From Geosiphon pyriformis uo1 (Eukaryota > Fungi > Glomeromycota): DNA of 64,000 nt. The DNA is taken from assembly GCA_016748015.1 (NCBI GenBank), contig JAAOMT010000694.1:310001-374000 (forward strand), in the 5' to 3' direction. The position numbers and the translations under genes are program-made. Below the pieces are notes generated by a model. The model worked only from the letters and a program-made list of their open reading frames with translations, searched no databases and was not told the DNA's origin. Shown here in pieces: positions 1-35,113 of the stretch. How positions within the stretch are numbered: position 1 is the first letter of the stretch; every line of letters begins with the position of its first letter.

Positions 1-3000
1 TTTTACAATATCAAGCAAGAAACATCTGAAACTGTTATGACTTATTTTGGAAGATTTAACAAACTTCTTAGACAAATTCGACAATTGGAAACCAATGACT
101 ACTATTCCAATGCTCAAATTCTGAATCAGTTTATTGCAGGGTTAAAAAACAAACTGATTAAGAAAGTCCATTTACATGCTCCAGCAGACTTAGCAACTGC
201 CATTAAACATGCAAAGAATTATGAAATAACTATGGAAGAAGTGAACCACACCAAACTTGTTAACTTGGTTATTGGAGAAACCAGCTTAGCAGCTGAAGAA
301 AAGATAGACCAACTTACAAAGAAGGTTGAAAGTTATTTTACAAACCAGCAACAACCACAAAAATATCAACCACCACAACAATGCAACCAAAACAACTTTG
401 AACCATCATCCAACAACCAATCTCAAAATTGTCACTATTGTGGAATTCCAGAATACTGAAAACGAGATTGCAGGAAACTACAAAGAGACCAACAAAACAG
501 GAGTAATCAACGTTACTCTTTACCACAACAATCTTATTACCAACCCCTACCACCAACTTATTATTCACTGAGACCACAAATTCAAAACAGCTATTATTAA
601 CCAGCTCTACAACCAATTCAACAACAATATTAGCAACCTTTACCAATTTAGCAATATTAGACACCACCCACTCAACAATATCAAGTACCAGCAAAAAAAT
701 TGGTTCAACATAACCAATTTACATTCCAAAATCAATTTCAGAATAACAACAACAGAATTAATCCAAATAACCAGTTGGTTCTCCGAAATTCTGGTCAGCA
801 AAGACCCAATCACTATTACACTCAACCCAGTTATCTTATAATACCAGAGAAATCGGATTTTCAACAACCTGCACTTTCTGAAGGTGAAGTTGCAGCACCC
901 AGATCAAACCCTTTCAACAACACTATTCCACTAGCTCAAATTGCCCAAAATGCCAACTTTTCAGATATATTCCCATTCGAATTTGAAGCAAATGAATCAC
1001 CATTATTGCTTAGTAATGCAGCAGCTAATGAACAAAAAGCTATTACTGCCATGTACACTGAAGCTACAGTAGAAAGAAAACCCATTCGACTAATTCTAAA
1101 CAGTGGATCAGCTGGAAGTATTATCACCTACTAGTTAATACAACAGCTTCAAAAAACTGTTGACAGACCAGCCCAAACTGTAATTGTTACAGCAGATAGT
1201 ATGAAAAAAATACCAGTAGGAGAAATTGACAATTTTCTATTCACCATTGATGGAATCACCATTCCAGTCAAAGTTCTAGTCATGGATGCACCCTAATACT
1301 AAGCTCTGGTCGAAAATGATTGGCTTCTTAAGGCCAATGCAAACTTGGACTGGAAAATTCAGGAATTAAAAATCTTATACCAAGGACAATACACCATAGT
1401 ATCTGTTACTTGTGATACTTTTAACAAACAATCAGAAAAAGCCCCAGTATTTGAATTTGAAAAGGAGAAAAAAATGCCACTTACTGAAACCTACATGGCT
1501 CTTGGATCAACATCCAATTGGGCTGAAGAAACAGAACAGGAGATTTTTGAAGAATCAAGAAGATGGAAGAAAGTTAGATATTCTACACCAGAATCATGGA
1601 AACAACCACCCTATATTCCACTCAAATACAAAGATTGCAACAAGAAACTTTCATCAATGGGAGCATGTATTTCTCCAGAAGAGGAATATGAAACTTGTAC
1701 CTGTTACTTTTGCAAAGCATGTCATAGAGAACGATTTGGATCTCCAAAAAGAAGTGGAAAATGGGACAACACATCTTGCCTTACATGTGGAGATATGTTA
1801 CCAGAAGAATGCAACTGGATTGATGTTGCAATGAAAGAAGAAGTATGTGATCAAGCCTGTCAATATGTTTTATCAATTTCGGAAAAAGTCAAAAAAGGAA
1901 CACTATTTGATGCAGCATACAACAGTGCTTTCAATAAACTTTACCACTACTCTTATGATGCTGAAATGATTTTTGACTTAGCAATAACATTGATCAATGG
2001 AGCCACCCAAGAAAATGTCTGCCAAATAAAAAGAGCTGAATATATTGAGTATACCATGGAATTAGCTGGATTTGATTATGAAGATAAAGTAGAAACCTAC
2101 CACCAAATTGCAAGCCACACATATCCGACTCAAGAAGCTCAAATTCAACAATTAGAGCAAATGAACATTCAATTGTATGAAGAATGCATCATGTCTTGTG
2201 ATGACAAATAGTGTTCAGAATGCTATGCTCTTAGCATTCCCCTGTCAGAGGAGAATGATGAAAATGAAATTGAATTTGGAGTATTCGAACTAGTAGAAGA
2301 ACTACCAACCACTCCCATCTATCTCTTTGAAAAGCAACCACTTTTACAACTTAAATATTTTGACAACCATGGCCAAGAAATTAGACCAGAAAAAGCACAT
2401 AAAATTGATGCCGAATATGACCTAAGATACCCAGGAAAAAATACTTTGGTTCTTCAACCAAAGTCTTTGACAAAAATCAATCTCAAAATCACTCTTGAAA
2501 TTCCACCTGGAGCAATGGTTCAAATTGCCTCCAGATCATCATTGGCAAGCAAAAAAATCAATATTAGAGGAGGAGTTATAGATACAGGATACACTGGAGA
2601 CATTACCATCATGTTACAGAATGAAACAGACAAACCATTTAAGATTGAACATGCTGAAAAAATTGCTCAAGCAATTTACCTACCCTTAATCAATATTTCG
2701 GGTCTACAATCAGTTAACAACAGAGAACAATTGGAAAAAAGTGAAAGAAGAACTCAAGGTTTTGGTTCAACTGGATAATTTACAGTTTCAGTAAACATAG
2801 CTCTTAAAATACAAAATAAATCTCACCAGATTCTTCAACTTCCCCAACCAATTACCATTTTACCTTTTGGAGAACATCATGAAATTTACACTTGCTCAAA
2901 ACTCATTACTACCCAACAAATCTTTGAATCCAATGAACAAATCTGTTTGAAGCATAAAATCTCAATTCCAAACGTTTATATTCCCAAAGAAATGAAAAAA

Positions 3001-4623
3001 TTTCGAGTTACATTCTACAACCCCAATAATTACCCTATTGTTTTATTAAACAAATTAGAGATTGAAATCATACACAGCAATATTTTTCAAGATGAAAACC
3101 CTCAAATTGTCTCTAATTTTATCGAAATTGTAAGGCACACTCTACTCCCAAATCCAAATATCATTCCCATCACTAAAAACTACCATATTTTGGAAAAAAA
3201 ACTTTCTCATATCAACATGGGTCTCTTAGAATCTCAACAACAAAGACAATTAAAACAATTGATAACTGAATTTGCAGATATATTTGCAAAAGACAACAAT
3301 GACCTGGGAAAAACAGATATTGTTCAACATCAGATCCATACAAGAGATGCTCCACCAAAACATCAGCAAGCTTACAGAGTACCACCTGCCAGTTACCAAT
3401 TCATCAGAAAAGAAGTCCAGAGAATGCTTAATAACGGATTGATTCAACCATCAAGAAGTTTTTGGGCCTTACCAATAGTCCTTGTCAAAAAGAAAAATGA
3501 AAAAATCAGATTTTGTGTTGACTATTGCCAATTGAACAGTGTGACAATTGGAGATACTTACTCTTTTTTAAGAATTGATGACATGTTAGATGCTTTAGGA
3601 AAAGCCAAGTTCTTCTCAACTTTGGACTTGGAAAGTGAATACTGGCAAGTCGAAATGGACCCAAAAGACCGACCCAAAACAGCATTTACCACCCAAAGAG
3701 GAAACTATGAGTTCAATGTTATGCCTTTTGGACTTTGCAATGTACCAGCAACATTTCAGCAACTCATGGATGTTGTATATGAAGGGCTTTTGTGGCAATC
3801 AGTAGTTGTCTATCTTAATGACACTGATATATACTCACCAAGCTTTGAAGCCCATTTCATTCACCTGTGAGAAGTTTTTCAACGATTACGGAAAGCAGGA
3901 TTAAAGTTAAACATTGAAAAATGTCACTTTGGAAAAACAAGCTTGATTTTTCTTGGACACATAGTTAGTAAAGATGGAGTCAAACCAAACCCAGGAACAA
4001 TCAGTGCTGTCAAAAACTTTCAAACTCCTAGAAATACCACAGAACTATAAGAATTTATAGAATTAGTCTCTTACTATCAAAAATTCATAAAAGGATTCTC
4101 AGAAATTGCCAAACCACTCAATTATCTTACCAACAAAAATGTGCCATACAAATGGACTGAAGAACAACAAAAAGCTTTTGAAACTTTCAAAACAAAATTG
4201 ACAACAGCCCCAGTTCTTGCTTACCCAGACTTCAACAAACAGTTCTAATTAGTTACTGATGCTTCACACATAGTATTTGGTGCCATCTTATCACAATTGG
4301 ATGAAAATGGACAAAAACAAGTCATTGCTTATACTAGTAGAACACTTAAACCAACAGAACTAAAATATGGCTCAACTGAATTAGAAGCTGCCACAGTCAT
4401 CTGGGCTCTTAAACATTTTCAACAATATCTGAAGAATGAAAAAAAATTTGATATCATAACTGACAATATTGGTCTTAAATAGCTCAATAAAAAAAAAACT
4501 GAACAAAGTGCCAAACAGTCTTGATGGAATAACTTCTTAGCAGACTACAAATATATTGTACACCACAAACCAGAAAAAATACACATTAATGTTGACAGCC
4601 TTTCAAGAGTGAGACAATATTAA
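1..4623 (+). pseudogene. Single-frame gag-pol polyprotein of element A, broken by nonsense transitions
   Basis: ORF pieces at 37, 700, 1345, 2446, 2947 and 4297 are all in one frame. Motifs: zinc knuckle CHYCGIPEY*KRDC, protease LILNSGS (D>N), RT MPFGLCN and YLND (YLDD), RNase H TDAS / ELEA / ITDN / VDSLSR, then TAA at 4621-4623. Confidence 0.92.
2350..2778 (+). pseudogene. dUTPase domain within pol of element A
   Basis: Trimeric dUTPase motifs I-V: DAEYDL, SRSSLA, GVIDTGYTGDI, EKIAQAI, RRTQGFGSTG. Confidence 0.93.
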
Positions 4624-4679
4624 TACCAACATCAACACCAACAAACTTAACAGCAAAACAAACAACAAAATCAACAACA

Positions 4680-6063
4680 ATGGATCCAGAAAACTACAAC
4701 ATCAAAAACTATTTGGAGACTCTCACCATGCCAGAAAATTGGTTTCCAAGTGAAAAACATTGATTACAACACCAATTCAAACAATATTTTATACACCACA
4801 ACAAAATCTATTACAAAAATTGTAAAAACCCAAACCAACCACTCAGATTAGTACAGGAAAATGAAAAAGAAACAATTTTATATAACATGCATACAGATCT
4901 ATCTTCAGCACACTTGGGAAGAGATGGAACAATTCAAAGAACTCTTGAACATTATTTTTGGCCTCACATGCAAAAAAACATTTGACTATATGTAGAATTT
5001 TGTAATAGTTGTCAAAAAAGAGAAGGAACTCGCTCCACAGAATCTTTAAATCCAATCAAAGTTGGACAATCGTTTGACAGAGTTGGAATTGATTTAGTCA
5101 GACTATTACCTATCACAACCCAAGGAAATTGCTATATTGCAGTAGCAGTAGATTATCTTACCAAATGGTCTAAAGCTAGAGCCATCCAAAAAGCAGATGC
5201 AAAATTAGTAGCAAATTTCCATTTATGAAGACATTATTTGTAGACATAGATGTCCAATTGAACTCTTATCTAATCAAAGAACACATTTTGTGAACAACTT
5301 GATACAAAAAATTAGTGAATGATTCAATGTCAAAAGATTTCTATCATTGTCTTATTACCCTCAAACAAATGAACTTGTAGAATGGTTCAACAGAACATTG
5401 TGTGAATTGTTGGCCAAAGTCTCAACAGATTTTAAGCAAGAATGAGATATCTTTATTTCATCAGTGTTACTAGCATACAGAACACTAAAACAAGATACTA
5501 TGAAACACATACTATTTGACCTTATTTATAGAAGAACAGCAATATTACCAATTAATTTCACAGTAGAAACATATCCAGTACAACCAATCAATGAAGAAAA
5601 CTTTCAAGAAACACTTCAAAGAAAGGCCTACACTCTTCTCAGTACACTGGAAGGAAAAAAAAGGACAGCAGCAACTCACATTGAATATTTCCAAGCTCAA
5701 CAAAAAGAAAGACATAACAACAAATTACCATTCATTATCAACGAATTTAAAGTTGAAAATAAAGTTCTCTTACACAGAACTAAGGCTGAAAAACAATGGA
5801 GTGGAAAATTTGAAAACAAATGGGATGGACCATTTTATATTCACAAAATTTTAGACAATAGATCATACAAGTTAAGACTTGATGATAAAATATTAGCAAA
5901 AGTTGTACATGAAGACAAATTGAAACACTATCATTCCAGAAACAATTCTGAAACATTAATTCCACAAATTGGTACACATTCTCTTTTAATTAATTCTGAA
6001 AATATTCCCCGAAATTTAGAACCAATAATTATAATAGAACAACAACCAAACTTAAACACTTAA
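4680..6063 (+). pseudogene. Integrase of element A
   Basis: Begins MDPENY at ATG 4680. HHCC (MHTD..SAHLG..CNSCQ), GIDLV, LSNQRTHF, PQTNELVE, KWDGPF (GPY/F). Several stops and a +1 frameshift near 5220. No chromodomain seen. Confidence 0.92.
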
Positions 6064-6208: not shown

Positions 6209-6916
6209 ATGATTATTCTCCGAAATATTCAACAAATATCCCAAAAGTTAATGTTAGCCTTAAAAACACTTCCTGACTTATCCATAATGATTAATGAAAG
6301 TCAAATTAATTACATTCAGAAAAAAACCACAGCCCCAGTAGTAAATCATTTACAGAACTATCATCTTTATAGAAAAAAAACAAGAAGTTATTCTAAAAAT
6401 AGGTTACCAAGACTTTTGAAACAAGCACTGGAAGAAAATCTTTTAATTGCCCCTATTGACATTCCACCAAATGCTACAATGCAACAAAAACTTCTACTAC
6501 TTCTCAATAAACAGAACAATAAACACACCCCTATCTATAAATATTTTCACATTGGAAAGACACTTTATGAATAAAAACTGAAACTTGAAACAACAAATCT
6601 CACTCCTGAAGCTATACAAAAACAAATTCATAATGAATTCAAAACAGCAGCTGAACCAATAAACACTTGCTACAAACTTAGAGCAGCTTTTAGACTCTAT
6701 GATTTGTTTAATACTTGTGAAAATGTTCTACAAAATCCAATATTGCAATCAATGAAAGTCCAATACATTGGCAAACTCACAGAACTGAAATTTTAACAAT
6801 TTTCAGACCAAATTACTTCAATTATTTTGGATCACTATCTCAATATCACAGATAGTGCTTGGACTTTGATAGAGCTCAGTCTTGAGGAAGAGATTATGTT
6901 ACCAGTAGAATTTTAG
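6209..6916 (+). pseudogene. Extra ORF3 of element A (~235 codons, unknown function), reading through the PPT into the LTR
   Basis: The 6209-6574 ORF continues in frame past two TAA codons (...AAFRLYDLF...IGKLTELKF*...ELSLEEEIMLPVEF*). Confidence 0.75.
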
Positions 6917-7896
6917 CTATTAATTAGCATGAAATTACCCTTATAATTCCTATAATTAATTAGTATATTAATATCATTTCAAATTATCATTTATTATTTA
7001 ATCAATTATCACATATCACAATTCAATTAAATAATCCAATTAGTATAACAAAAAGTAGGATGATCAAATTACACAATACCCTGAACTTTGTAACATTCAG
7101 AAATTCGCCAAAATTTACAGAAATTTGCCAAAATTTATAAGAAATTCGCCAAAATTTATAAAAATTCACCGAAATTATGAATAATTCACCCAAATTAATC
7201 AATAGTTCAGCGAAATAACTTGTAGTCCATCAAAATATATCTTTAGTTTGCCAAAATTTGAGCAAAGAGAAAAAGTGCAAGTTCATAGACTAGTACTACA
7301 ACAAATTGTATAAAAGAAGAGCTTTTCTCTTCAAGAAAATGTATCTTACTTTAGATTTATCACTTAGAACCATTCTTACACACACAAAAAGAAATAAATA
7401 TCAAATAATTTAAAAAACCAAATTCTTTAATTATTGCACTTAGAAAATCCCCAAAACCCAACTAATGTTTTGAAATTGATTAGTTACCAATTTCAGTAAA
7501 CTGTTAGTGACTCCAGGCCTAGATAAAAAACGTTTCCCTTGATAAAATTCAATTTCTTTTATATTTCTTTTACTTTTCTTTTATTTTCTTATTATAATTA
7601 TTAGGGTAGCCTACAGATGAGAAGAGTTGACTTTCACAGCAAAATAACTACACATTTTTAGTGAGCTTCCAGACGAGCAATTCCTGGAAAAGAGTTGACA
7701 TTTATTACAACATAACTACATAAAATAACTGACAAGAAATTGGCTATTCTACTTATAAGCCCAGCAGTTCAAATTATTTCCTATAATTTGAAAATAAATT
7801 CAGTACTAGAGATTTAACTACTTCTAGAAAACGTGAATTTGCAACCAACAGACATTTACAACATTTAAGAAAAGAGACCAAAAACCTCCAGTAACA
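6897..7896 (+). repeat. 3' LTR of element A (1000 bp)
   Basis: TGTTAC...GTAACA inverted termini, preceded by GAGCTCAGTCTTGAGGAAGAGATTA, with TATAAAA at 7309-7315. Confidence 0.88.
7099..7258 (+). repeat. ~20-bp tandem array (AGAAATTCGCCAAAATTTAY-like) in U3 of LTR A
   Basis: Four clear copies plus degenerate ones upstream of the TATA box. Confidence 0.85.
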
Positions 7897-9999
7897 ATGC
7901 CAATTCACCCAGTTCTTTGGTCATCTTATTACAAAAGACAGAATCTTTCCTAACTTAGCTAAAATTGAAAAAGTTCAAAACATTAGACAACCAATGAATG
8001 TTTTTGAACTACACTTTTTCCTTGGTTTGGCTTTTTACTATTGCAAATTTATCAAGAATTTCTCTAAAATTGTCTTTTCTCTCAATCAGCTACTCAGAAA
8101 AAATGTCAATTATTACTGAGACACTTATTAACAAAAAACTTTTGAAATTTTGAAGAAAAAACTTGTTACTGAACCAATTTTTAAGCAACCTGATCTGGAC
8201 TAATCTTTTATTTTCCACACTGATGCATCTGGTTATAGACTTGGTGCTGTTCTTTCACAGAAAAATGAAAATGGTAGAAAACATGTTATAGCATATGCCA
8301 ATAGATCCCTTATACCAACAAAAAAGAACTATTCAGTTACTAAACAAAAATGTTTAACAGTAGTTTGGACTACTAATTACTGGAATTAATATCTTCTTGA
8401 TGTGAAATTTCTAGTAGTAACAGATCATCAAGCCTTAATTTGGCTGCACAATAAAAAAAAGCTAGAACACAAACAAATAACTTGCTAAATACTTTACTTA
8501 GATGAATTTGACTATAATATTCAACACCACAAAAGAGCAAATCATCAAAATGCTAATGCTCTCTCTAAACTTATCATCTAGTAATAGTACAACCTCTCAA
8601 TCAAACCAACTTAATTATTAGTAATATCTTCATAAACAAACACAATAATAGATTTGGACAACTACTTTGTTTTAATGAAATTTTTAGATAAAAGACAATA
8701 TCCACCAAAATACACTTAACAGCAAAAAAAACATTTGCATAAACAATCAATTTTCTATTTGATCTATCAGAACCAATTATATAAAAGAAACAGAAAAGAT
8801 CTTGACTGCCTCCAGAGAGTCATTAAATTTGAAGAAAAAGAAATTATAATATACAATATACATACTGATCCATTAGCTAGATACTTTGAAAAAACAAAAA
8901 CAATTCAGAAAACTTTAGCTTGCTATTATTGGCCTACTTTGAGAAAAAATATTGCTAAATACATCAAAACCTGTAACATCTGCCAAAGAAAAAACAAACC
9001 CAATCACAAAGAAAATATTCATCCAATTTCTGTTGGTCAACCATTTGACAAAATTGGTATAGATGTTGTTGGATCTTTAACAATACCTTCTAATGGCAAC
9101 AGATATATTATCACAGCTACTAACTATCTTACAAAGTGAGTAGAAGCAAAAGCCATTCCAAATTAAACAGCAGTCTCAATAGCCAATTTCATTTATGAAA
9201 ATATCATCTGCCATCATAGCTGCCCCAAAGAATTTTTATCTGATAAAAAAAAGCTTTTCTCAGTACACTGGTTGAAGAACTTTGTAGAAAAATGAGAATA
9301 TGTCATAAACTTTCTTCCCCTTATCACCTTTAAACAAATGGCTTAGTAGAACGTTTTAATAAAACATTATGCAAAATCTTAGCCAAAACCAATAAAAAAA
9401 CAAACTTATGGAACAAAGTACTGCCTTTAGCTTTGTTTGTTTATAGAACTGTGAATCATAACATAACAAGTTATAAATCTTTTTATCTACTCTATAGATG
9501 CATAGCAACACTACCAATAGAAACTGACATTAAGACAATACTTTTTGAAGAAATTACAATAGAAAATTACAAAGACATTTTGCAAAAAAGACTTGGTATC
9601 ATTCTTAACTCCTTGATAGAAACATGAATAATTGCTTTTAAAAAGATAAAACAGTTTCAAGAAAAGCTTAAAAAAAAAAACCTATACAACACTTTCTTTA
9701 AGTATTAGTAACTTGGTATTAGAATACTGTTTAAACATAAACAATGTCTATGGTGATAAATTCTTTAGCTGATGGAAAGGACTCTTTATAGTCAACAAAG
9801 TTTTGAACAATGGTTTTTATATTTTTTAAGATCAATCTGGAACAATCTTTAATGATTGTCCTGTTTATGGTATATAACTCAAGAAATATCATAAATAACC
9901 TGATTGGTTGTCTGTTGTGGTAATACCAACCCAAATGATCAGCAAAAATCAAGTATAAATAAATGCACTATTTCCAAAACAGAGGTATTTTCAATCAAC

Positions 10000-10656
10000 A
10001 TGAACAATTATTTTCTGGATTAAAACATTCAAAATGCTTTCTATACTCTTCATGAGTATTGGATCAAAAACTATCCAAATGCTATTCTAACTATTGAAAA
10101 GCAGACCATCATAACTGATAACAGTAGAACACATACTGTTATTAGATCCAAGAAAACTACTACCAGAAAAGAAAAAATTGGTAGCAAAATAGATAAGTAT
10201 TTGCTAAAAAGCATAACAGCAGCAATACTTGTACCTTTTATTACAATTGGAAAAACAATTCAAGAAATCTTGCCTATAGACAAAAATTTGTCATATGGAA
10301 GACAATTAGAACTCTATGGTCACCTTGGAAAAATTATAGAGAATATAAAATTCATGAAGAAAACAACTTCAAAGATACAAACAGAAATTTTGGACATTAT
10401 ATGATTAGATGTTTCAAGAGTTTTAACTATTGCTAAAAGAGCCAAAACTCTAATACAAAGATTTGGTTTCTTGGATACAAAACTCATTTTATTTCAAGTA
10501 TTATATACTCTATCCACAAAAGACTTCAACAAACTAGTTAGCTTTGAGTTAGATAAAACTCTTTAAATAAACTATACTATGAATAGCTTGATTTCACCAG
10601 AGCTTAATCTCTTTGGAGAGGATAATGTTACAATTGAAACCTATACTTCTTATTAA
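10000..10656 (+). pseudogene. Extra ORF3 of element B (~218 codons), overlapping the PPT and LTR start
   Basis: ATG 10000 is in frame with ORF 10201-10404 and reads on through 3 stops (MNNYFLD*...LYGHLGKII...IAKRAKTLIQRF...ELNLFGEDNVTIETYTSY*). Confidence 0.72.
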
Positions 10657-11352
10657 TTATCACATGTATTAGTTACTAATGTCATATAATTAACCACTTT
10701 ATTTTTAGAAAGTGATTATTGACCTAATTAATGACTTGACCATTAACCTGATCATTAATCTGATTAATAATCTAATTATTGACTTGATTATTGACTTAGT
10801 TGTTAACTTGATCATTAACCACTTTTGATAGCTATATAAGCAATAAATCTCTTAGCTATAAAAAAGCATGTTAGAAATTAAGAAAATCAAATAAATAAAA
10901 TAACAACTTTCATTTTAATTCTTCTCTTATCACTAATTTCTCTTTCTCTATCTTCAAGTATCTGAACATCTTGGGATAAAAGATTATTTGTTGGTTATTT
11001 TTTACCCTTTTTCTGAAATGTGTAATTGCAGTATTTGAAGATTATTGAATAAATGTGATTAAAAAGTACATTTAATATCTAATATTAAATTTTAAGAGTG
11101 CCAATGTGAGACATAGAATTATACCAGTATGTGATCATTTGTTAACAGTATGGACTATCCTTCTATCTTTAAATTTTCTGGTTATTTTTTGAAAAGTATA
11201 GTAACTAAGATATTTTATGAGACTAATCTCACATATTGAATCCATACTTATTTAATTTGCTCTTTAAAGTTGAATTTTCTTTGATTTTTTTTATTACCCT
11301 ACAATTCTGTTCTCTCTTGCTATATATTAGCTTATTACTCCAACTCGTAACA
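10626..11352 (+). repeat. 3' LTR of element B with a 12-bp tandem array (10713-10822)
   Basis: TGTTACA...CGTAACA, preceded by GAGCTTAATCTCTTTGGAGAGGATAA. About 9 units of TGATYATTRACY; TATATAA at 10833-10839. Confidence 0.87.
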
Positions 11353-11914
11353 ATAACAATAAAAAAAAATTAAAAAAAAATTAAGAAATTAGTATTTTGT
11401 TAATAACCATAATTAAGAGTTATTGGTCCAGTATAGTTAAGTATTGGATTCTATTAACATAAAGTGTTAATAGAATAAAAGTGTTTAATATTTCTTTAAT
11501 CAAATAATGATAACATAAATTTAAGTAATAATTGATATTTTATTGATATGTAATTTAATTCTACTTTAAGTTGTAAAAAATTATTTTTTAAAGAAAGGGT
11601 TATAAAATAATTAATGGGTTATGGGTATTGATTCTGAACTGAATCCTGTTTTTTTTGTTTTTAACATTCTTGCTATATATACATATTTCTTGTTCTACAA
11701 GATCTCACATTTTTTTAAGTAATGTGTTTTAATTTATTAATATTGCTTACATTGCTAAGCAGTGTGCCATAATTTGCTAGTTATATACATATTATTAAGC
11801 AATGTATCATAGTTTTTTAATATTGTGCTCATGTGTTAAGTACTATTTTTCTATTAGTTTATTTTTTTATTTGTTTTTTTAGTTTTTTTTCTTTGTATTT
11901 TTTTATAAGTAACA
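11353..11914 (-). repeat. Antisense truncated LTR, same subtype as the LTR at 15783
   Basis: Reverse complement starts TGTTACTTATAAAAAAATACAAAGAAAAAAA and is collinear with 15783-~16380. Confidence 0.85.
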
Positions 11915-14900
11915 GTGAGAACAAAAAAAAAGTTAGAAATTACAGCAAAAGAAATAAAAAAATTCGAATCAATGAATAGAATAGACATACCAGTTAATAT
12001 AATAGAAAAAAAAACAATTGATAAAGAAAAAATTATCTCCACTTATTAATCAATTTTTATATTACTATATAATCAATATATGGTAGTTATAGAAAGAAAA
12101 ATAAAAGACCAACTTAAAATTTTTGAAGCAGAAACAAACATTTGTAAATTAGAAGAGATAGCTATTACCAATCTTTATATACTAATTAAGAACAATAAAC
12201 ACATTAAGATTTCAATATACAACACAACTAAAGATTTCATAAAAATATCAAATAGAACTACTATCAGATACTTAAGCATTGAAGTGGAAAATCAAGCACC
12301 CACCACCATTTCAGACTTTCTACAGCTTTATGAATATGTGAATATCACATTAAAAACTATATACAGATGAAAAAAGTGTTATTTGTTATAATCAAAACAA
12401 TTAGAGCAAATAAACTTGGAAAATTTAAACTTACTTCAACAAATACAACTTAAAATACTACTTAACAATTTTACTGATATCTTTGCCAGTAAAAATAAAT
12501 TTGACAGAACTGATATTATTTAATATTAAATTAAAACTGGAAATGCAATGTTTATCAAACAAAGAGCATATAAAGTACTACCAACTAGTTATGAAATTAT
12601 CTGACAAAAAATTAACAGAATATTAGATAATAGGTTAATTCAATTATCAATGAGCCCATAGTCATTACCAGTAGTACTTATCTGGAAAAAAAATAGAAAA
12701 ATCTACTTTTATATGGATTATAAAAAACTCAACAGTGTTATTTATAAAGATAATTATTCAACCCTATAGATCCAAGAATTATTTGATGTTTTTAGAGGAA
12801 AAAAATGTTTTCAACATTAAACTTAGATAGTAATTACTGGCAAATAGCCATAAATTCAACTGATAAAAAGAAAACAGCATTCACAACCAAAAAAAAAACT
12901 TTGAATTTAATGTTATATTATTTGGCTTAACCAATGCTTTAGCCATTTTTAACAATTTATGAAAATCATATATACTGAATTACTATGGAAATCAGTAGTA
13001 GTCTACTTGAATAATACCAATGTGTTTTCTAAAACATTTAATAACTATTTCCACCATCTTTAACAAATGTTTGAAAGATTAAAAAAAGCTAAATTAAAAT
13101 TAAATACAACCAAATGCTTTTTTGGCAAAACTAAACTTAAGTTTTTAAGATATGTTGTAAACAAAGACAGCATAAAAACAGATCCAAACAAGATTAAAAT
13201 AGTTAAGAACTTTTCAATACCAACAAATTTTACAAAATTAAGAGCATTCTTAAAATTTGCTGAATATTATTACCACTTTATTCAAAACTTTTTTAAACTG
13301 GCTTAACCACTTTACCAGCTTTAAGCAAAGAATGTTAAATATAAATGAACAAAAACCCAACAAAAAGCTTTTGATATCTTAAAAAGAAAGCTTATTTAAG
13401 CATCAGTACTAATCTATTTAAATCACAGCAAACCATTTATTATTATTACTAATGCATTTAGTCAAGCATTGGAAGCTGTATTGTTACAAAAAAGAACAGA
13501 TGAATAAAAACATCCAGTGGCATATGTCAACAGAAGTTTAAGTTCAGCTGAAAAAAACTATAGAACTTTAACATTAAAACACTTAACTATCTATTGGGCT
13601 GTAATTAAATAGAAAAAACATTTAAGTCAAAAATTTAATGTGTACATGGATTACAAAAAATTGACATTAATCCAAAAACAAAAATTTGGAAACAATCACT
13701 ATGCAAGATAGAAAATAAAACTATTATCATTTAATTATATAGTATATTATAAAAAAAAAATAGAAATGCTGACAGTTTATCATAAATAAAACAAATCTAA
13801 AAACATTTCAACCCAAAAATATAACAAAGATAAATACATAAAAATATTAAAAACTTCAATATTATATTAATATTCAACAGTTTAAGAAGAAATTATTTCA
13901 AAAAAAACAAAACAACATAAAACAACAAGCAAAATATTTTATTACTTACCAAGATATATTATACCAGAAAAACAGAAAATAGAACAATACTATTTAACAT
14001 ATATTTAAATTTAACAGCAGAACATTTTTATAAAGAAGCAACCATGAAAAAAACCAAAAAAAAATACTATTAACTATCTATATATCCAAAAATTATTCAA
14101 TATGTTCAAAGTTGTAATGTTTATTAGAGAAAAAGAGGAACAAAACTCAGTAAACCACTAAGATTAATTAAAGTAGAACAACTATTTAACTGAATTGGAA
14201 TTGACTTAATTAGACCATTAATAATAACAAACAAAGACAATTATTATATAGCAGTAGTCATAAACTATCTTATAAAATAGACAAAAGCAAAAGCAATTCA
14301 AAGAGCAAATGCAAAATCTGTAGCTGAATTTATACACCAAAATTTGATTTGTCAATATAAATGTTTAAAAAAATTATTATCAGACCAGAGAACTCACTTT
14401 GTAAACAAAACATTAACAGAATTAAGTCAAAAATTTGGAATCAAAAGACTATTATTATCATTATATTATCCACAAACAAATAACTTAGTCAAAAAATTCA
14501 ACAAAATATTATGTAAAGCAATAGCCAAGATTAGCCAAAAAAACCAGAACAAATAGAATTTATTTATACTATCAGTATTATTTACTTATTAGATAATAAA
14601 GCAAAATATTATACAAATAACACTATTTAAATTTGTTTATAATAGAAAAGCAATATTACCAATAAAGATAGATATCAACACATATATAATAGAATCAATA
14701 ACAGAAGTTAACTTTTAAAGAACATTGTTGAAAAGAACATATAACTTAATAAAAACATTAAAAAACAAAAGACAAAAAGCAGCTAATAATATACAAAAGT
14801 TATAAGTAAAACAAAAAAAATGATATAATAACCAATTATCAGATAAACCAGTCGAATTTAGGATTGAAAACAAAGTATTCTTATATTATATCAAAGTGAA

Positions 14901-16691
14901 AAAACAGTGAAGTAGAAAATTTAACTTCAAATAGAATAAACTAAAACTATATTAAAATATAGTATTATCATTTACCAATAATATTCTACAACTGAAAGTA
15001 CAACAAATATTAGTCCAATTAGATGAGATTTCATAAGATCTGAAACTAATTATAAGCATTAACATAAACATATCAAATTAATCTACAAAATAATATATAA
15101 AAAGACATGATATACATAACAAAAGCAACAAAAAAAATGAAAATTCCAGACTACATCTACATAATGGCTCAACAATTATTCCAAGCCATAAATTAACAAT
15201 AATTAAACATGAAAATTGTTATCAATTACCAAACAATTTGCTATTAAAACACCAAAAAAAACAAAAACCACTCCATATTAACAATCACAGAACCAAACAA
15301 AACACTAGTTAAATAAAATTATAGAAAAAATAAAAAACACTTTTGGGAAAATACCACTAATAATTTCAATAGAGAAAATAATTAAAGAAAACTAAAAGCT
15401 ATAGATGGAACAACTTCTAGTATTATACTGTTATTATTAGTTGAGACAAAAGCTAAATATCCAGAAATTATATATCAATAAATCCAAAAGAATATTTAAT
15501 CAAGAAATAGTACAACAGATTAAAAATTTTATTGGAAAAAAAACAAATTTTAAACTATATATTAGAACAATTTACTGACTGCACACAATATTTCAAAATT
15601 ATCCAGAAATATTACTATACCAAAAAATAGAAACAATAACTGTTAACTAGTAGAGAAAAATAAACAACTCTCAATGTAAAAAAATAAAAAACAAAATTAA
15701 ACAAACAATATTAAAAAAAAAAGTAATAGACTTAATCCAAAATGAAAATTTTAACAAAGCTCAATATTAAAGAAGAAAATAATATTACTCATAGAAAAAA
15801 TACAAAGAAAAAAAGTAGGAAAAACAAATAAAAAAATAGACCAATAGAAGAATAATACTTAATAAGTAAGCATAATATTAGAAATTATAATACATTGCTT
15901 AGCAATATATACATTGTCAATAAATTATAACATACTGCTCAACAATACATATATTGTCAGAAAATTATGGCATATTGCTTAACAATAAGAGCATTATTAG
16001 AAAAAATAGAATATATTGTTTAAGAAAATATAAGATCTTATATAATAAGAATTATGTATATATAGTAAAAATATTAGAAACAGAAAAAACAAAATCAATA
16101 CTAACAATCAATTAATTATCCAATATCTTTTTTTTTAAAAGATAGTTTTCTATAACTTAAAGCAAAATCAAATTACATATTAATAAAATATTAATTATTA
16201 CCTGAATTTATGTTATTATTGCTTGATTAAAAAATATTAATTATTTCCACTCTATTAACATAAAATATTGATAAAATTCAATACTTAATTATGCTGAATT
16301 AATAGCTTTTAATTATGATTATTAACAGGATATTAATTTTTTATTTTTTTTATTTTTTTTTATTTTTTTTATTTTGTTTTGTTATTTACTAATTAATTAA
16401 AAAAAATTAAGTGCTGAGTTATTAACATCAAGAATAGCTTGGTAAAAAACCCATAAAACAAGAGTAGAAAATTCATAAAATTAAGGATAGTTTACCAAAA
16501 GGGCAAGATTGTTAAAGGAACTGGCCATTATATTAAGAAAAAAATTTATGGAAAAAACTTTTAAGATAAGTACTAAAACAGCAAATGAATCTCTGTCTAT
16601 TATATAAAAAACTCAATTAAAACCTTCAAATATTACCAACATTATTAAGCTATTGAACACTAAGTTACAGATTTGTTATTTGTTTTAACAC
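11915..16691 (+). mobile_element. Heavily decayed Ty3/Gypsy element C (dUTPase tail, RT, RH, IN, ORF3 ~15137-15770, 3' LTR 15783-16691)
   Basis: Collinear with element A: LFGLTNA, VYLNN (YLDD), KCFFGKTKLKFL, LSDQRTHF, YYPQTNNLV. Tract AAGCTCAATATTAAAGAAGAAAATAA precedes TATTACTCATAG; ~40-bp repeats at 15880-16025. Confidence 0.88.
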
Positions 16692-17524: not shown

Positions 17525-17975
17525 CTATGATTAAAAACTATTATTCTAATGTAGTTAAGTATTAAAGTTTATCAACATAAGTTGTTAATAGTAAAGAAGT
17601 AATTAAGATTTTTAATCAAGCAATAATAACATAGATTAATGATAATTAGATATTTTATTGATGTTGATGTGATTTTACTTTAAGTTATAAAAAACTATTT
17701 TTTAAAAAAAAAATATAAGAAAAATAGCTATTGCTAACTATTATTCTGTCTAAATTTGTTTTTTTTGCTTCTAATACTTTTATTATATATATATAATTTG
17801 TGTTATACAAGATTTTTTAAAATCTTTCAATTTTTTTAACAAAAATCTTAGAATTCTAAAATTTTGAAATTTCGCAATTTTTTAAGAAGAATTCTAGAAT
17901 TCTTTTTTTTATTATGTTTATTTCTAATTGGCTATTTTATTTACTTATTATAATTTTTAATTTCTATAAATAACA
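17525..17975 (-). repeat. Antisense truncated LTR, same subtype as the LTR at 19328
   Basis: Reverse complement TGTTATTTATAGAAATTAAAAATTATAATAAGTAAATAAAATAGCCAATTAG matches 19328 onward. Confidence 0.85.
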
Positions 17976-20053
17976 CCAGAACAAATAGAATTTGTTTATA
18001 TTATTAGTATTATTTGCTTATTAAACAATAAAGCAAAATACTATACAAGCAATATTATTTGAACTAGTTTATAATAAAACAATCACAATACTAGTTAAGA
18101 TAAATATCAATACATATCTAATTGAACCAATAACACAAGCCAATTTTTAAGAATTATTGCTAAAAAGAACATATAACTTAATAGAAACTTTAGAAAATAA
18201 AAGATGAAAAGCAGTTAATAACATACAAAAATTACAAACAAAACAAAAAAAATAACATAATAATCAGTTATCAAATAAACCAGTCGAATTTAAGATTGGA
18301 GACAAAGTACTTTTATATTATACCAAAACCAGAAAAACAATAGAGTAGAAAATTTAATTTCAAATAGAATGGTTTATTTTAGATTAAAAAAATTCTGAAA
18401 AATAAACATACAAGTTAAGATGAAACAATAAAATCTTAATCAAAGCAGTACATAGTAATCAACTAAAATCATACTACAATATAGTATTATTATCTACCAA
18501 TAATATTCTACAATTGGGAGTATAACAAATACTAGTTAAACCAAATAAGATTTTATAAAATTTAAAACCAATTATAATTATTAAAACAAACATATTAAAT
18601 TAATTAATCAGAACAATATATAAAAAACCAATACACATAATAAAAGCAATAATAAAAATAGAAATTACTGATAACATTTACTCATTTACACAACAACTTT
18701 TACAACTTATCTAATATTAGAAATCAAGTTTTAAAGTTACTATTAACAAATAAACAATACAATATAAAAACAAAAGAATAACTTAAAGATTTTAAAATAA
18801 AGAACAATACTCTAGATATTATACTTTTAGAAATTTAGTAAACAAAATAATAAAAAAAGTAGAAAAAATATTAAAAACTTTAAGAATATTAATACCAAAT
18901 AAAGAATTTATCTTAGGAAATTAAAACTAATAAACACAACTAATTTCTAAGAATTTCTGTTATTATTAATTAAAACAAAAAATAAACATTCAAATATTAT
19001 ATACAGATAAGACCAAAAAAATATTTGATTCAACTATAATACAATAAATTAAACAAGTTATGGGAAAAAACAATTTATCCACTTATGCAAAAACTATTTA
19101 CCAATTACAAATAAGATTTTAAGACTGATTAGAAATACTACTACACTCAAAAATAAATACAATAACTATCAATTAACTAGAAAACTTAACTAATATTTAA
19201 TTTGCAGAATTGCAAACCAGAATTACAAAAGCAATTCTTGAAAAAAAAGTTTTAAAGCTAATTTAAGAAAAAAATTTAAGAGATTTAGGAGATTTTGATA
19301 GAGCTCAATATTAAAAAGAAAGAATATTATTATTTATAGAAATTAAAAATTATAATAAGTAGATAAAATAGCCAATTAGAAATAAGCATAGTAAAAAAAA
19401 AAATTCCAGAATTTTTTTAAGAAATTGTAAGATTTCAGAATTTAGTATTTTTTTTAAAGAAATTAAAAGATTTTAAAAAATCTTATATAACACAAATTAG
19501 ATATATATAGCGAAAGTATTAAAAGCAAAAAAAACAGACAATTCAGTTTAAAACAACAATACTTCTCTTTTCAAAAAATAATTTTCTATAACTTAAAATA
19601 GAATTATACTTATATTAATAAAATATTTATTATTACTTAAATTCATGTTATCATTACTTAATTAAAAAAATATTAATCTATTTTACACTATTAATACTCC
19701 ATGTTAATAGAAGCTAATATTTAATTATACTAAACCAATAGCTTTTAATCATAGCTATTAATGGAATACTAATTTTTTATTTTCTTTTATTTTGTTTTTT
19801 TTGTTGTTTACTAATTAATTAAAGGAATTAAGTACTGAGTAATTAACATTAAGAATAACCTGATAAAAAACCTAAGAGCAAGAATAAAAAACTTAAAAAT
19901 AGCTTACTAAAAAGACATAACTGTTAAAATAAACTGCCCACTATGCAAAAAAAAAATTCACAAAAAAAACGATCAATTAAATTTCTGTTCATTATACAAA
20001 AAACTTAACCAAAATCTTTAAATTCCAAAATCTTTAAATAATTATTTATAATA
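17976..20053 (+). mobile_element. Decayed Ty3/Gypsy element D (IN C-terminus, ORF3 ~18658-19313, 3' LTR 19328-20053)
   Basis: 17976 onward aligns to 14544 onward of element C. GAGCTCAATATTAAAAAGAAAGAATA precedes the LTR; the LTR end AATTATTTATAATA parallels 17511-17524. Confidence 0.85.
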
Positions 20054-20940
20054 ATAATCTTATTAAAAAATTTTTAGGAAATTGGTCTTGAATTTTAGTT
20101 TCTTTTTAATAATTTTTTTAATAAGTATTATTAATTTTTTAACTATATTTTGTGTACTTTTTTAACATCTTTTATTAAACAATTTTTAATGTTATAATTT
20201 TAATACTTTTTTTAATTAATTAATAAATGCAAAACAAATCAAATCAAATCAAAATAAAATAAAATAAAAAATTAATATTTTATTAATAGTTATTAAAAGT
20301 TATTATTTTAATATTGTTAATAGTATCGAATTAATATTATTGACATTAATAAAAAACTAATTAGGCTTGTAAAAATATAAATAATAATTTTATTTGAATA
20401 AAAATAGTTTTTAAAAATTAGATTATTAACTATAAAATTACTAAATAAAAATAAAATTAAATTGGTTTTTAATTTAATTTGTTTTTTTCTGTTTTTAATA
20501 CTTTTTTTGTATATACATAAATCCTTATAATATAAAATTTTTAAAATTCTCACAATTTTTTAAGTTATTGTTAGAATTTCTGGCATTTCTGAAATTTTGG
20601 TATTTTTACTAATTTTTCAGAAATTTTTGGTATTCTTAAAATTTTTAATATTATATATTCTAATAATTTATATTATATTATTAATTATTTATATTATTTT
20701 TTGTTTTTTGTTTTTTTTCTGTTTTTACTTTACAAGTAATATTATTTTCTTTTTTTTAATATTAAGTTCTAACAAAATTCATTAAGTTTTTTTTTAAATA
20801 AGTTTAAATACTTTTTTTATTATAATATTTAAAATTTTTGTATTTAATTTTTTAAATTGTAAGTTGATTATTTTTTTTGGTTGGTTTGTTGTTAATATTT
20901 CTATAGTTAAATGTAGTAATATTTTTTTTTAATATTATAA
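20054..20940 (-). mobile_element. Minus-strand Gypsy 3' end E (LTR ~20054-20741, PPT, ORF3 remnant)
   Basis: Reverse complement GAATTTTGTTAGAACTTAATATTAAAAAAAAGAAAATAA-TATTACTTG matches the ORF3/PPT/LTR junction of elements C and D. Confidence 0.7.
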
Positions 20941-28634: not shown

Positions 28635-31600
28635 CTATACACTTATATGCACAGAAACCAAATCTTTAATACCCAAAAAAAATGGACAAAACTTACAAAA
28701 CCCAAAACCAACTCCAAAAGCCTCAGCCACCCCCAGCAATCTAACCACACCAGCCGAAAACACCATAGGCAAACCAGAAACTAAAACAGGAGCAGAGCCA
28801 TCATGCAGAATCAAACCGTGCTTTTCCATAAATGCCTGGTGTCTGGTGTAAACCAACCAAATATCATCCCAAAATGCAAGACAAAACTTGTGCACAAAGC
28901 CCACAATTTTTTTAGTACCCTTCTTTGAATTTTTAAAAACCAAGACAGACTCATGAAACCAATCATTAAAAACAAAGCCCTTGCACAGAGCAACACCAAC
29001 TCCAACTTCAGAAACACAAGAAGCCAAAGCCTGTAAGACACATGAAGAAGAGCGAGATAGACCAGAAAGAGCCTCCCAAGCTAAAGCATGAGCGCCCAAC
29101 AAATGAACATGGCCAATGGCATCCTGAGGACATAAAAAGACGTGATCTGAAGTCTTAACGTCACCACAGAAAAGACAGACCACACTGGGATATCTCCTAT
29201 CATATAAACACTTGTGCACAGCAACAGAAAGCCGATGATGGAGAGCCTTCATAAAGTAAGTACGACTGCCTGCCATGCGCTTGCTAGTAAAACTGGATGC
29301 CAAGTGAGAATCAGTGTGCCACATCATAGAAGACTTAGACCAATTGATATCAGCATACAAACTATCATCCACAACATGTGAACCCACTCCAACCTCCCAA
29401 TGAGCTTGATGAACTGACTGGAAAACATCACAAACAAAATATCTAGAATTACCAGAAACTGCTGTATCACCAGCACATAGAAAACGTTCACTGACTAAAT
29501 AAGGTAGGCGCCAAGCAAAGAGAGCAGCATTTTTGGCAAGCGTATCAGCATGCTCATTGCCCGAGACACCTGAATGACCTTTCACCTTAACCCAATTCAC
29601 ATCTAAATTTTTTTGACAAATGACGGTAGCAATGTGACAACGCTTAATTCAACAGTGGTTCCTGAAATCCAGACAAACCAGCGAAGACTCTGACTTACAT
29701 GCATCCAAAGCAGCTTGGCTATCCGAGAACAAGTCAATCAAATGAGAAAAAGAAACACACTCAAGGGCCAAAGCTATGGCTTGCAGTTCTGTTAGAGTAG
29801 AAGAAACCAAACCAGACACCCCAACACCCAAACCCAAGTTAATGTCCTCAAAAAAAACGGCAGCACCTGCTCTTACATCAACAGTGCCCAGACCAGAAAA
29901 AGATCCATCCGTATACACAGAAAGGCGGGCAGCATTAACAGTCAGCAAGGTGTCACGAACCACACCAAAATCATGAGAAAGACAAATATTAAACACAGCA
30001 TGACCATCTACCAAAGAAGAACTTGAGGAAAGAGGCACAACACCACCAAAAAAGCGAATGAAAAGATCAAACCAGAAAGGGACTGGGCTGCGAGGGTCTA
30101 GCCTCTTCCAACGCTTGAAGATCTCCCAACTGAAAACATCACCATTACAGTCACGAAGCTGTTCCACGAAAGCAATTCCATAACGCCTAAGCGAAAAGAT
30201 ATACTTGAAAAAACAGAATTCACCAAGAACCAAAGACATAAGAGTACTGCACCGACGACAAAAAGCACAAGCCAGAGGGCCTCCCAAAGACAAATTACAC
30301 CCAGAAAAGATGCAGACCACACCTGCCAAAAAATTATTCGAAAGACTGATACCGACACGAGCTGGAAACAGCAAGAGATGACGAGGACACCAGCTGAGAA
30401 CCTGGAGGTCATAAGACCTATGTGAAAACAAGCAACCCAAGACACCAGTAGAATTCACAAAAGCAATAATGAAGGCCGATTTACTTTCAGTCTGGATCTG
30501 TTCGAAAGTTTTTAAATTGTACAAAGAGAGGTGATGAAGTGCATTGCTGGGGAAATCATGTGGCAATCCAGACTTGGATTTCAAAATCTTGCATACCAAA
30601 GCATCCCATTTACTACAAACATCAACAGAAACAAAACTGAACTGAGTTCTGTAGCTGATGATAGGGAAAAGAACTGCAGAAACCAAATATGTACACTGTT
30701 TGTCTGAAATCGCCTTTCTTAAAATGAAATTCACAAAAAACTGTACATTAGTCTGAGCTTTAGCCAAGCTAGGCTTCGAAAGACTCTCAGAAAACAAAAA
30801 AACACCCAAATAGCGATGAAATTCCCCTTTCTTGGCAATGGAAATAGGCATGCCACTAATAATTAAACAAGGATCTGTTACCTGACAGTTGATAGAAATG
30901 GCCACCGTCTTGTCGTTATTCACAGAAATGTTATTGAACCTGAAAAATTCACTAGCAACATCAAGAATGTGTTGTGTAGCAGCCTGGCTGCTACCAACCC
31001 AAACAGTATTATTGATGAAAGCACCAGCAGCGAGAAATAAAGTCAATTTAGCTCGAGGATCTACTCGGCCTGTTTTGGAAATAAAATGAGAATTCAACCT
31101 GTAGTCACACACACTCTCCTGTCTCTTGACTTCACACAAAAGTGAATTATAAAAAATACGCCAGAGAAGAGGCGAAAAAACTTCTCCCTGATCCAGTCCA
31201 TTGTGGACACAATATCCATCAGTCAAGCCAAAGTCAGTCATCACCCTATTGACACGACCATTGTGAATACTGCCAAAAAATCTAATAAACCTGTCACACA
31301 TCTTGATTCTGACCAGACTCCTCCTAAGATGTTCCTAACCAACCAAATCATAAGCCTTGTATATGTTCTGTAAAACCAGCCAAAGTTCATGGTTCTTCTC
31401 CAAGGCATCCTCAATCACAGAACTGATAGCAAAAATGGGAGACTGCATCATCGTGCCTTTCAAAACCGAAAAATTGTCCCCACGAAGAACATCAAAAGTG
31501 CTGCAGACTGAAGAGATTCTATTTGAAAGGATCTTGGAGAGAATCTTGCGAGCCATCTCAATTAAAGCTATAGGATGGGTGTTCATGAGAACCTCTTCCC

Positions 31601-33323
31601 ATTTATATGGTTTAGGAATCATCGAAACCCAAGCTTCCCTCCAAGGCCCAGAAACTGATTCGCTAATCAAACAGAAATTCAAGAGTACTAAAAGCATATC
31701 CAAAACAGATTTGTCACAATGTTTCCATAATTCATTGGAAATACTAGAAAGACCAGCCGCTTTTCCATCAGGAAGATCCTTAACAACAGCTAACAACTCA
31801 TCAAAACCAATAAAACACATGACATCAGAGAAAGCACCATCGAACACGTAATCCAGAGGCCGATATTGGCAAGCCCAATCCTCAGATAAGTCAGACACCA
31901 TCTCACATTTTCTGGTCCATCCCTCCATAATTTTGTCCACCTTAGACTTAACCAAATCAGGCTCCAAAATCAATTCATCTTCTACAACCAGATGATCCAG
32001 GACCACCTTGCGAAAAGAACACTCCAAAACACTTCTGATAGTGTGACTCTTGTTTAGCTCAAAACTTTCCATCCTCTTACCAATAGCCTGCTTGATTGAG
32101 GATTCCTTAGCATGCTTGGATTCCAATAATTTGAAAGAGCAGTACGATTTCCTCACTTTGGCCAGTACAGAATGAATAAGATCAAAATTAGCACCTGAAA
32201 AAAACAGAGACTTAACCACCGACGCACCAGGAAAGTCGAGTCCATGCCATACCTCCAACAAAGAAGCAAAACTATCACTAGAAGCCAAATGCAAAGTCTT
32301 GACCAACTTAGAAACCAGCAGTTCCAGCTTGTGAAACCTAGAAGAAGTCTCAGTAAACATGCCATCAAAACCTTTGAACCACTTTTTCTTAAATGTACCA
32401 TCTGCCAAAAAAACCATAATCTTGCAAACAATGTTCCACATAACGTCCACATCTGAGAACCTTACTGCCACACCAAAAGCATCCGAGAACATAGAAACAT
32501 TAGCAGCTGAAGCAACCTTGAACTCCAACCACTTAGCTTCATTGGCACTTTTGACATCAAACTTCCAATGATCTTTATTCGCTTGCTTGTGAAGAGAATT
32601 CAAACACGTATCCAAGAGCCCACCCAGACCCAAATCCACTGAAACAGCTTGATGGTCTGTGTCAAAATGCTCACTGACATTCAAAACCTTATGACGCACT
32701 ATCGCATTGACAAGACTTGAGAAGACAAACACATAATCAATTGTTTTCTTAACGCCCCTAGAATTTTCTCAAGTGGGCATTTTTGCAGCTGGGCTGCCAA
32801 CTAAAGAATTGACCAGACCCAAATCAAAGCATCTTTTGAAACTTGCACTTTTATGAAAGCCGTCTTCATTAAAATCACCACCGAGAATGATGAAAAAAGA
32901 TTCGTTGACAGTCTTTGCAATGAAAAAATTGATTTCACCAGCTTAAGAAAACTGAACCACCGAAGAAGCACCAGCATAAAGCCCCAAAATTGACACAGAA
33001 AGTTTACTCTTAAAAAGTAATTTAATGGAAAGGAGCCGACCAGGCACCTTAGAAACCTTGCACACATGACGAGCCAAAGAAACGTTCATGATAACAGCAA
33101 CACCCGCACCCAAGTGACCAGAGTCCAAACCAGAAGTGAACACTCGGACACCGTCGAACTTGTCTGCAATCCACGGACGAACCCTACTCTTTAATTTCGT
33201 TTCAGTAACAATAGAGACTAAATTGTTCATTTTCTTATGCTATCTAATAATGTCTTCTTGCTTAGCAGGATTGTTTATGCCCCTGACATTGCACGTAGCA
33301 ACTTTCTAGACTAAACTGCTCAT
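28635..33323 (-). pseudogene. LINE ORF2 (APE endonuclease-RT-RNase H-CCHC), one frame, 6 internal stops
   Basis: TCNVRGINN, TETKL, LGGDFN, TIDYVF, TDHQAV (APE); KAYD, GLDQGEVFSPLLW, FINN (FVDD), YLGV (RT); YTDGS, ELQAI, FSDSQAA, KVKGHSGVSGNEHAD (RNase HI); CLFC..DHVFLC. Confidence 0.95.
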
Positions 33324-35113
33324 TGAGTAAGAGGTAGAGATACCGAAAGTGCACCTAAACTGTCCATTTTGGCCAAAAGGCCCAGAACCGTTTCCATTAG
33401 ACACTTCATGCTGTCTTCCAGCTTAGACACTGAAGACATATCAAAAGACACCACTCCCGCGACATTTCCACCACTAGTGAACACACTCGAACCCTCACTC
33501 ATTACTACATCTGCCCCTTGATCCTGTGATAAAGAGGTCACCAACGGCTGACATCCAGGGCTAGGCTGGGAAACCATTGGCCCAAGTGCATCCAACCTCT
33601 TAGCCAGCTTACCAACTTGCTCCGCGAGGCTGGCGAGACTGCGCTCAAGAGCAGCAAACCTATCATTGACTTCCATCGTAACTGGTTGGGATGGCTTCAT
33701 CTCTGAAGAGGAGCCATTTGTTACCACAACTTTCTGACCAGAGAGGGGGAGCGAAAAAGACCCGCGAGCAACCTTTGCCCAAGAGAGACCACCAAAAGAG
33801 ACTGGACAGGCAACCAGAGTCGAGCGTTTGGCATAGATGGTTGCCAGCCTGCTTTTATCCGTATCCGAGAAAACCCTATACAGTGAACTACTAGAAGACA
33901 ATTTCCCACCAACTGCACAACCCAATGATGTGTGACCCAATTTCTCACACTTGGCGCATCTAGCAGAAATAAGATAAGACCAGCGGAGATTGGTGTTTCT
34001 GAGTACTGGCGTGGTCCCCACAGCAGCATCCAATGATTCAGCAAAGTTGAAACAAACAACAGCACACTTGGCCCGAGCATACGTAACAGAATGACGATCA
34101 ATGACGCACATTTTCTCACTCACAGATCTAACAAAGTCCCAGATATCATGAGCATTGGTTCTCATCGGCAACGTATAGAGCAGTGCCCTATGTTGGTCCC
34201 TAACATCCCATGCTTCCTTGTCTGAATCAGCCCTAGCCATACGCACAGCATTTTTCCTGATTAAGATGGACCACTTAGCTGCAGCCAAATCAGCTTAATC
34301 CGATTGTTCAAATTCCACCACTGCCTTCTGCCACAGCCCGATTAACTGCATCTTGATCGTCCTAATAACTCCAAACTCGGATAGTGCAGCATGCACAGCC
34401 TCAGCCGATGTTCCAACCGGAATTTCTTTCACGACCACAGCCCGATCTAATTGCCCAGATGCTTTTTTGAGATTGGCGTTTACTAAGATCTTCGCATTCG
34501 CAGCTTTATCAGTAGCTTTCATTAGACTCGATTCGGAAGTGAATGTCGTCCTGATGATTCCTGAGAATTTTGAGGGGGTAGATGCCCCCCCAAAACCATT
34601 GATTCCAGAAAACAACTTCCTCATCACCACAAGTTTTTCCTGAGAAGATTTGCCAGCCACTTTATCCAAGCCAATATCCAATGCGAATGATTTCTTAACT
34701 AAAACATTGACCAAATTTCTCACAGAAGGAGGGAGCTCAAGAGGAGCATCCGAGAGAACACCATCATCACTACCATTTTTTGAGAAGTCAATTTTCTCCA
34801 ATGGCTTGTCCAACGCCTTTTTGGTTTTAATCTTCAAACTTGTGGGCATCTGATCATAATCTCTACCAGCCAGAGCTCCACCTTCACTATAATCAAAGCT
34901 GGTTTCCTCCACCAGACATTCCTCTTCCATATCAATACTTTCAGACTCAGTAGTGTCCCCAGTCTCCGAACTCCATAAACAAATACCAGAAACTTCAGCA
35001 GCAACCCTTCCATTATCAACACCCTCTGTCAACACACCTTCCTTCCTCTTTTTCCTTGATGTAACCGCTTTAAAACCACTCTCAGAACCAGAAACTTTAG
35101 CAGTCTTTTTTAT
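33320..35113 (-). pseudogene. LINE ORF1 (nucleic-acid chaperone)
   Basis: ORFs 34295-35035 and 33320-34288 are in one frame split by one TAA; probable start ATG>ATA at 35113. Contains RKKRK, RRM-like segments, CCHC knuckle CAKCEKLGHTSLGC and a heptad coiled coil. Confidence 0.88.

Follow-up and report, generated by a model that had tools for sequence, protein, structure and literature searches.

Extra open reading frames (ORFs) between pol and the 3′ long terminal repeat (LTR) are found in Athila, Bagy2, Grande (gene23), Retand and Boty (PMC7264820). According to the excerpted text of that source, such plant and fungal ORFs are present in many copies of a family, their functions are mostly unknown, and regulatory roles like those of retroviral accessory genes have been proposed; Grande GENE23 is nuclear and has its own promoter. 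Bdelloid rotifers have dUTPase-bearing LTR elements with family-linked ORF3s, some of 210 to 230 residues, that are said to form separate transcription units (excerpts of PMC5408684). Here we describe a gene of this kind, ORF3, in Ty3/Gypsy elements A to D of a 64,000-nucleotide stretch of the Geosiphon pyriformis uo1 genome (contig JAAOMT010000694.1, positions 310,001 to 374,000, forward strand), referred to below as the window. A first-pass annotation of this DNA had assumed that Gypsy elements carry gag-pol, or gag-pol plus env, a premise that the non-env extra ORFs of plants, Botrytis (PMC7264820) and rotifers (PMC5408684), even as excerpted, show to be too narrow. For three of the four elements, our analysis shows that ORF3 is a real, non-env accessory family of a fungal Ty3/Gypsy lineage; the family is apparently new to the literature, though extra ORFs as a kind are known.

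Like the plant and fungal ORFs, ORF3 lies between pol and the 3′ LTR and occurs in many copies. The sense ORFs in the excerpts of PMC7264820 are discussed as env-like, with membrane segments in some, and those that are nuclear lie antisense, whereas ORF3, compared by description, is a sense ORF for a soluble protein and borders or runs into the purine tract and the unique 3′ (U3) region. With the rotifer genes it shares its similar size and its setting as a non-env ORF3 in a dUTPase-bearing LTR element, but the rotifer products, as excerpted in PMC5408684, are GDSL esterases, DEDDy exonucleases, coiled-coil, transmembrane and env proteins, and Geosiphon ORF3 has no such Pfam match.

In all four window elements ORF3 lies on the plus strand between the end of integrase and the start of the LTR, as first annotated, and its strand and position relative to pol are the same in the element L001, where RNase H and integrase are followed, after 316 nt of spacer, by an intact ORF3 of 230 codons that enters the LTR. 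The four frames had been described as open, which none of them is, and the ORF3-bearing copies within the window are all dead. Stops occupy 2 of 235 codons in A and 3 of 218 in B against shuffle means of 17.6 and 18.4, with 0 of 2000 shuffles as low in either case; in D the stops number 15 among 217 codons where shuffles average 22.2, a shortfall that by itself lacks significance (P 0.062). The frame of C is broken by frameshift. Nor are there four divergent families, since C and D form one lineage, whose DNA is 82% identical across 402 nt of integrase and 68% identical across a 905-nt stretch including ORF3. A fifth, minus-strand copy matches 15607-16447 at 65% over 859 nt (blastn). The annotated endings held: ORF3 continues past the purine tract in A and B and enters an LTR whose first bases are TGTTAC (at 6897 and 10626), and in C and D it ends with TAA just ahead of the tract.

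Beyond the window, ORF3 is kept in many copies of the family and is not a one-off capture. Searches found 203 matches among 412 candidates for ORF3 of A (the best 85-89% identical) and 128 among 275 for that of B, and every one of the 120 homologs listed for each is annotated as a hypothetical protein of G. pyriformis, with top identities of 80-89%. A full length of 221-239 residues is retained by 64 of the 120 listed A homologs and a length of 218 residues by 20 of the 120 listed B homologs; these are gene models, in some of which false introns could hide stops, although most full-length models align without gaps, and their DNA context is known through fused integrase domains alone. A profile of 41 A proteins had 35 matches among 1.84 billion representatives, including two metagenomic proteins (P0267 and P0269) and two further Geosiphon families. 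A second search recovered another ORF3 family, F, with 50 matches among 2113 candidates. In this family (P0276, Geosiphon gene models) the linker carries a 30-residue charged insertion, and the C-terminal end FAGAQF stands ahead of the purine tract, comparable to DRAQY in D.

Homology among the window copies was assessed with a 10-sequence profile that included neither C nor D. It matched D with 79.5 bits (E 7e-24, at 18658-19242), C with 56.5 bits (E 8e-17, at 15351-15716) and the fifth remnant with 13.8 bits (E 9e-4, at 20931-20818), indicating that the ORF3s of A, C and D are homologous. Against B, whose integrase is the most divergent (25-36% identity), the profile reached 7.5 bits for the best of 120 B proteins. 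In profile-profile comparison B can be aligned over its whole length, with the N-terminal helix and ITI strand, Y..[IL]G, L..F and the tail in plausible correspondence; the scores were equalled by 2 of 60 column shuffles locally and 5 of 100 block shuffles globally. Homology of all four, as first proposed, thus stands for A, C and D and is borderline for B, whose relationship is probable but unproven. The three motifs said to unite the four proteins are, as written, largely A-specific: among 64 full-length A proteins the second occurs in 52 and the third in 61; neither occurs in any of 20 B proteins, and among 6 other relatives the second is absent and the third is found once.

Substitution rates show a pattern of purifying selection on ORF3. 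Nonsynonymous and synonymous rates (dN and dS) were 0.79 and 2.29 (saturated) for A versus L001, and 0.43/0.76 and 0.44/1.49 for C versus D, where integrase gave 0.18 and 0.40; the values are biased by protein-guided alignment, and their direction is consistent. Identity between lineages is 16-36% for ORF3 and 33-56% for integrase, from which ORF3 is shown to evolve the faster. Small ORF3 and integrase trees are roughly congruent, B excepted, favouring vertical inheritance of ORF3 within the lineage. These rates bear on whether ORF3 makes a useful protein at all, or is a by-product frame that has stayed open through recent amplification or because of cis-acting sequence close to the purine tract. 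In A, P0267 and P0269 the acidic tail ELSLEEEIMLP is what results when the purine tract and the start of the LTR are translated, and a DNA motif just upstream of the tract, AGAGCTYA(R/A)T, is read in one ORF3 frame in A, B and L001 and in another in C and D, which points to a cis-acting signal; judged from sequence, the tail is cis-constrained. That much, together with the uniformly dead window copies, speaks for a by-product. Yet some 200 codons upstream keep their length, frame and hydrophobic pattern across lineages this divergent, dN lies below dS, ORF3 is open in an independent near-intact element and a confident fold is predicted, so that we consider a by-product very improbable and ORF3 almost certainly a selected accessory gene.

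The proteins are 218-244 residues long, and a structural model predicts a small N-terminal helix and β-hairpin, a basic linker of low model confidence and a confidently modelled helical bundle (about residues 70-170 in P0269). Conserved residues gather in a single helical core that includes a Gly turn. In 10 proteins the best 19-residue Kyte-Doolittle mean was 0.59-1.47, in agreement with the earlier statement that there is no transmembrane segment, and this hydropathy scan revealed no signal peptide or membrane anchor, although no dedicated signal-peptide predictor was used. Pfam scans of 30, 30 and 41 members found no env or fusion-protein family at E≤1. An env-like or membrane protein, for which the env position is the sole argument, is scarcely credible given the lack of a hydrophobic segment or env family and the soluble helical model. 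The annotation's central description, a conserved accessory gene whose non-env product is soluble and predicted to be helical, is therefore supported by the profile matches, hydropathy and the model, with purifying selection shown by dN<dS.

The annotation had added that the protein was possibly DNA-binding, of which there remains a weak, non-significant resemblance to ParB-like helix-turn-helix (HTH) domains. ORF3 has no Pfam entry of its own and is unmentioned in the literature searched; its best match to DUF1016_N reached E 0.0028 (18 bits against a cut-off of 32.8), and its own profiles matched ParB/KorB-like HTH families at E 0.09-0.35, with a method low enough in power to link DUF3102 to ParB and YhcG only at E 0.05-0.06. 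In independent comparisons with HTH_ParB (PF17762), DUF1016_N (PF17761) and DUF3102 (PF11300) the matches share one register, comprising a helix, a Gly-ending helix and an R-L-Y/F helix, although all scores are under significance; ORF3 differs in lacking a CTPase or nuclease partner domain and in its extra N-terminal helix-hairpin and basic linker. The Closterovirus coat protein (PF01785) had an atlas score of 0.92-0.93 with 150-156 features in common with ORF3; no Pfam match was found, and a viral-structure search was empty at E≤0.001. One ORF3 member matched VPR at E 0.035, a chance-level Pfam score.

Our preferred reading, which we place a little short of an even chance, is that the ORF3 product is an accessory protein that binds DNA in the nucleus and acts on the element carrying it. 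Stops and a spacer of 56 to 316 nt part ORF3 from pol, so it would be translated from a separate subgenomic RNA, and its product would enter the nucleus via the basic linker. TATA-like stretches lie about 40 nt upstream of ORF3 in B, C and D and are unremarkable in DNA of 70-80% AT. The predicted core, likely a ParB/KorB-like HTH, would attach to DNA of the element that encodes it, with the LTR as the most likely target, through lineage-specific U3 repeats; the LTR tandem arrays could be candidate binding sites. These arrays are family-specific, though only the A array beats shuffles. Bound ORF3 would keep the element transcribed or protect it from CpG methylation, the decay from which is visible in these copies: CpG observed/expected is 0.02-0.17, and ORF3 family alignments swap Arg with Cys, His, Gln or Trp, which we read as methylation-driven decay. 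The same pressure from host methylation is compatible with a protein that works through protein contacts, either as an integrase cofactor or chromatin tether steering insertion or as an inhibitor of host silencing, and binds no DNA sequence of its own. ORF3 stands directly behind a separately encoded integrase that has an SH3-type region and no chromodomain match in Pfam, and its fast evolution fits a protein in conflict with the host; there is no evidence of a partner, however, and conservation of the helical core and its Gly turn could be explained equally by a fixed ligand or by a protein partner, making this reading somewhat unlikely. An RNA-binding accessory that coats, exports, packages or protects element RNA, whether as nucleocapsid helper, Rev-like export factor or RNA-silencing suppressor, we regard as unlikely.

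The host element is a Ty3/Gypsy LTR retrotransposon with a Ty3-like reverse transcriptase (RT). The order RT, RNase H, integrase is present in the window and in L001, and among solved structures those closest to element A RT are 4ol8 at 147 bits and 7q5b, a chain of Ty3-G Gag-Pol, at 144.5 bits, with foamy virus protease-RT well below at 72 bits. Upstream, the element A ORFs at 661, 1303, 2212 and 2779 share frame 1, with a stop at 4621-4623 right after the RNase H end, and Pfam matches identify dUTPase (E 1e-21) and RVT_1 (E 1.5e-18). We take the remaining domains, from their sequence features, to be gag and protease. The dUTPase (2212-2778) sits between the protease region and RT, and the Cys-rich region of about 300 codons ahead of it (1303-2211) has no Pfam match. 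The RNase H frame of A, B, C and L001 stops within a few codons of an (N)AD(A/S)LS(R) motif and integrase follows as a separate frame, having its own ATG in A, where the frame is shifted, and in L001, where it is unchanged. The element A integrase is 46% identical to that of L001, matches SH3_Tf2-1 at E 6.6e-5, below the curated Pfam cut-off, and in its window copy gave no chromodomain match in the Pfam scan. Separately encoded integrase is unusual for Ty3/Gypsy, and a literature search for it in fungal members found nothing. A clade with three cistrons (gag-protease-dUTPase-RT-RNase H, a separately started integrase and ORF3), in which ORF3 would be a ParB/KorB-type HTH of prokaryotic ancestry serving as an LTR-binding transcriptional or anti-methylation regulator, is doubtful when taken whole.

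Features of the ORF3-bearing elements (window coordinates unless marked L001)
Feature	Coordinates	Strand	Remarks
Element A gag-protease-dUTPase-RT-RNase H	661..4623	+	decayed, single reading frame
Element A integrase	4680..6063	+	own ATG, other frame; decayed, 1 internal frameshift
Element B integrase zinc-binding region	8720..9139	+	Integrase_H2C2 E 1.3e-13; part of decayed RNase H-integrase fragment
RNase H stop/integrase junctions	4621-4682; ~8570-8680; ~13780-13800; L001 772-800		
ORF3 of A	6209..6916	+	235 codons, 2 internal stops; runs through purine tract into LTR
ORF3 of B	10000..10656	+	218 codons, 3 internal stops; own protein family
ORF3 of C	15137..15770	+	frameshifted, stop-ridden; ends ahead of purine tract
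ORF3 of D	18658..19313	+	one frame, 15 stops; ends ahead of purine tract
Fifth C/D-type ORF3 end and LTR	20170..20931	-	strongly decayed; absent from the first-pass annotation
AGAGCTYA(R/A)T motif sites	6868-6896; 10596-10625; 15752-15782; 19296-19323; L001 3090-3116		
Polypurine tract of A	6884..6892	+	read as ORF3 tail (ELSLEEEIML); same tract in L001, L002
Inferred 3′ LTR of A	6897..7530	+	start TGTTACC; end approximate; 20-nt tandem array 7099-7176
Inferred 3′ LTR of B	10626..10985	+	start TGTTAC; end approximate; 12-nt tandem array 10713-10820
Inferred 3′ LTR of C	15783..16380	+	40-nt tandem array 15882-16004
Copies related to C LTR	11349-11912; 17527-17819; 19474-19805	-; -; +	

The LTR starts seen are 3′ ones only, after purine tracts; that of A matches L002, a complete related LTR running from TGTTACC to GGTAACA, and since the window holds no second A or B LTR, LTR ends are given without confirmation by pairing. 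The window as a whole is AT-rich fungal DNA containing a nest of decayed LTR retrotransposons, with more decayed C-type RT and integrase fragments at 56070-56874 (minus strand) and 41863-42306 (plus strand). A GC-richer (40-47%) non-LTR-like element at 28635-35194 (minus strand) has an ORF upstream and frames that, from their motifs, we take to be RT-like and RNase H-like. Frames at 62574-63491 (minus strand) presumably belong to a lipase-class-3-type host gene (GHGIGG and TFGAPRVGN motifs).

Complex retroviruses place accessory genes at the 3′ position, among them foamy virus Tas/Bet, HTLV Tax and HIV Nef. ORF3 resembles these in position and, in A, B and L001, in a Nef-like read-through of the purine tract into U3; it differs in having no Pfam match to accessory families, and its host RT is Ty3-like. 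The first-pass label of "complex" retrotransposon therefore survives as an analogy and not as a result, and a regulatory role for ORF3 is a plausible conjecture. Hundreds of G. pyriformis "hypothetical protein" models are ORF3 copies, and naming the family cleans up Archaeosporales annotation. According to the excerpts of PMC7264820, what such extra ORFs do in LTR retrotransposons is a long-standing question, and because ORF3 is small and soluble, survives intact in some natural copies and has a confidently modelled core, its binding to DNA or RNA and any activation of the LTR are directly testable. If ORF3 is a self-encoded LTR-binding regulator, a fungal retrotransposon would have reached a design like that of complex retroviruses. 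LTR sequences make up 41.2% of the G. pyriformis genome, and the mycorrhizal-fungus transposon survey reporting their expansion there makes, as excerpted, no mention of such an ORF (PMC11952901). An LTR-binding HTH in ORF3, if confirmed, would help explain this LTR expansion in Geosiphon.
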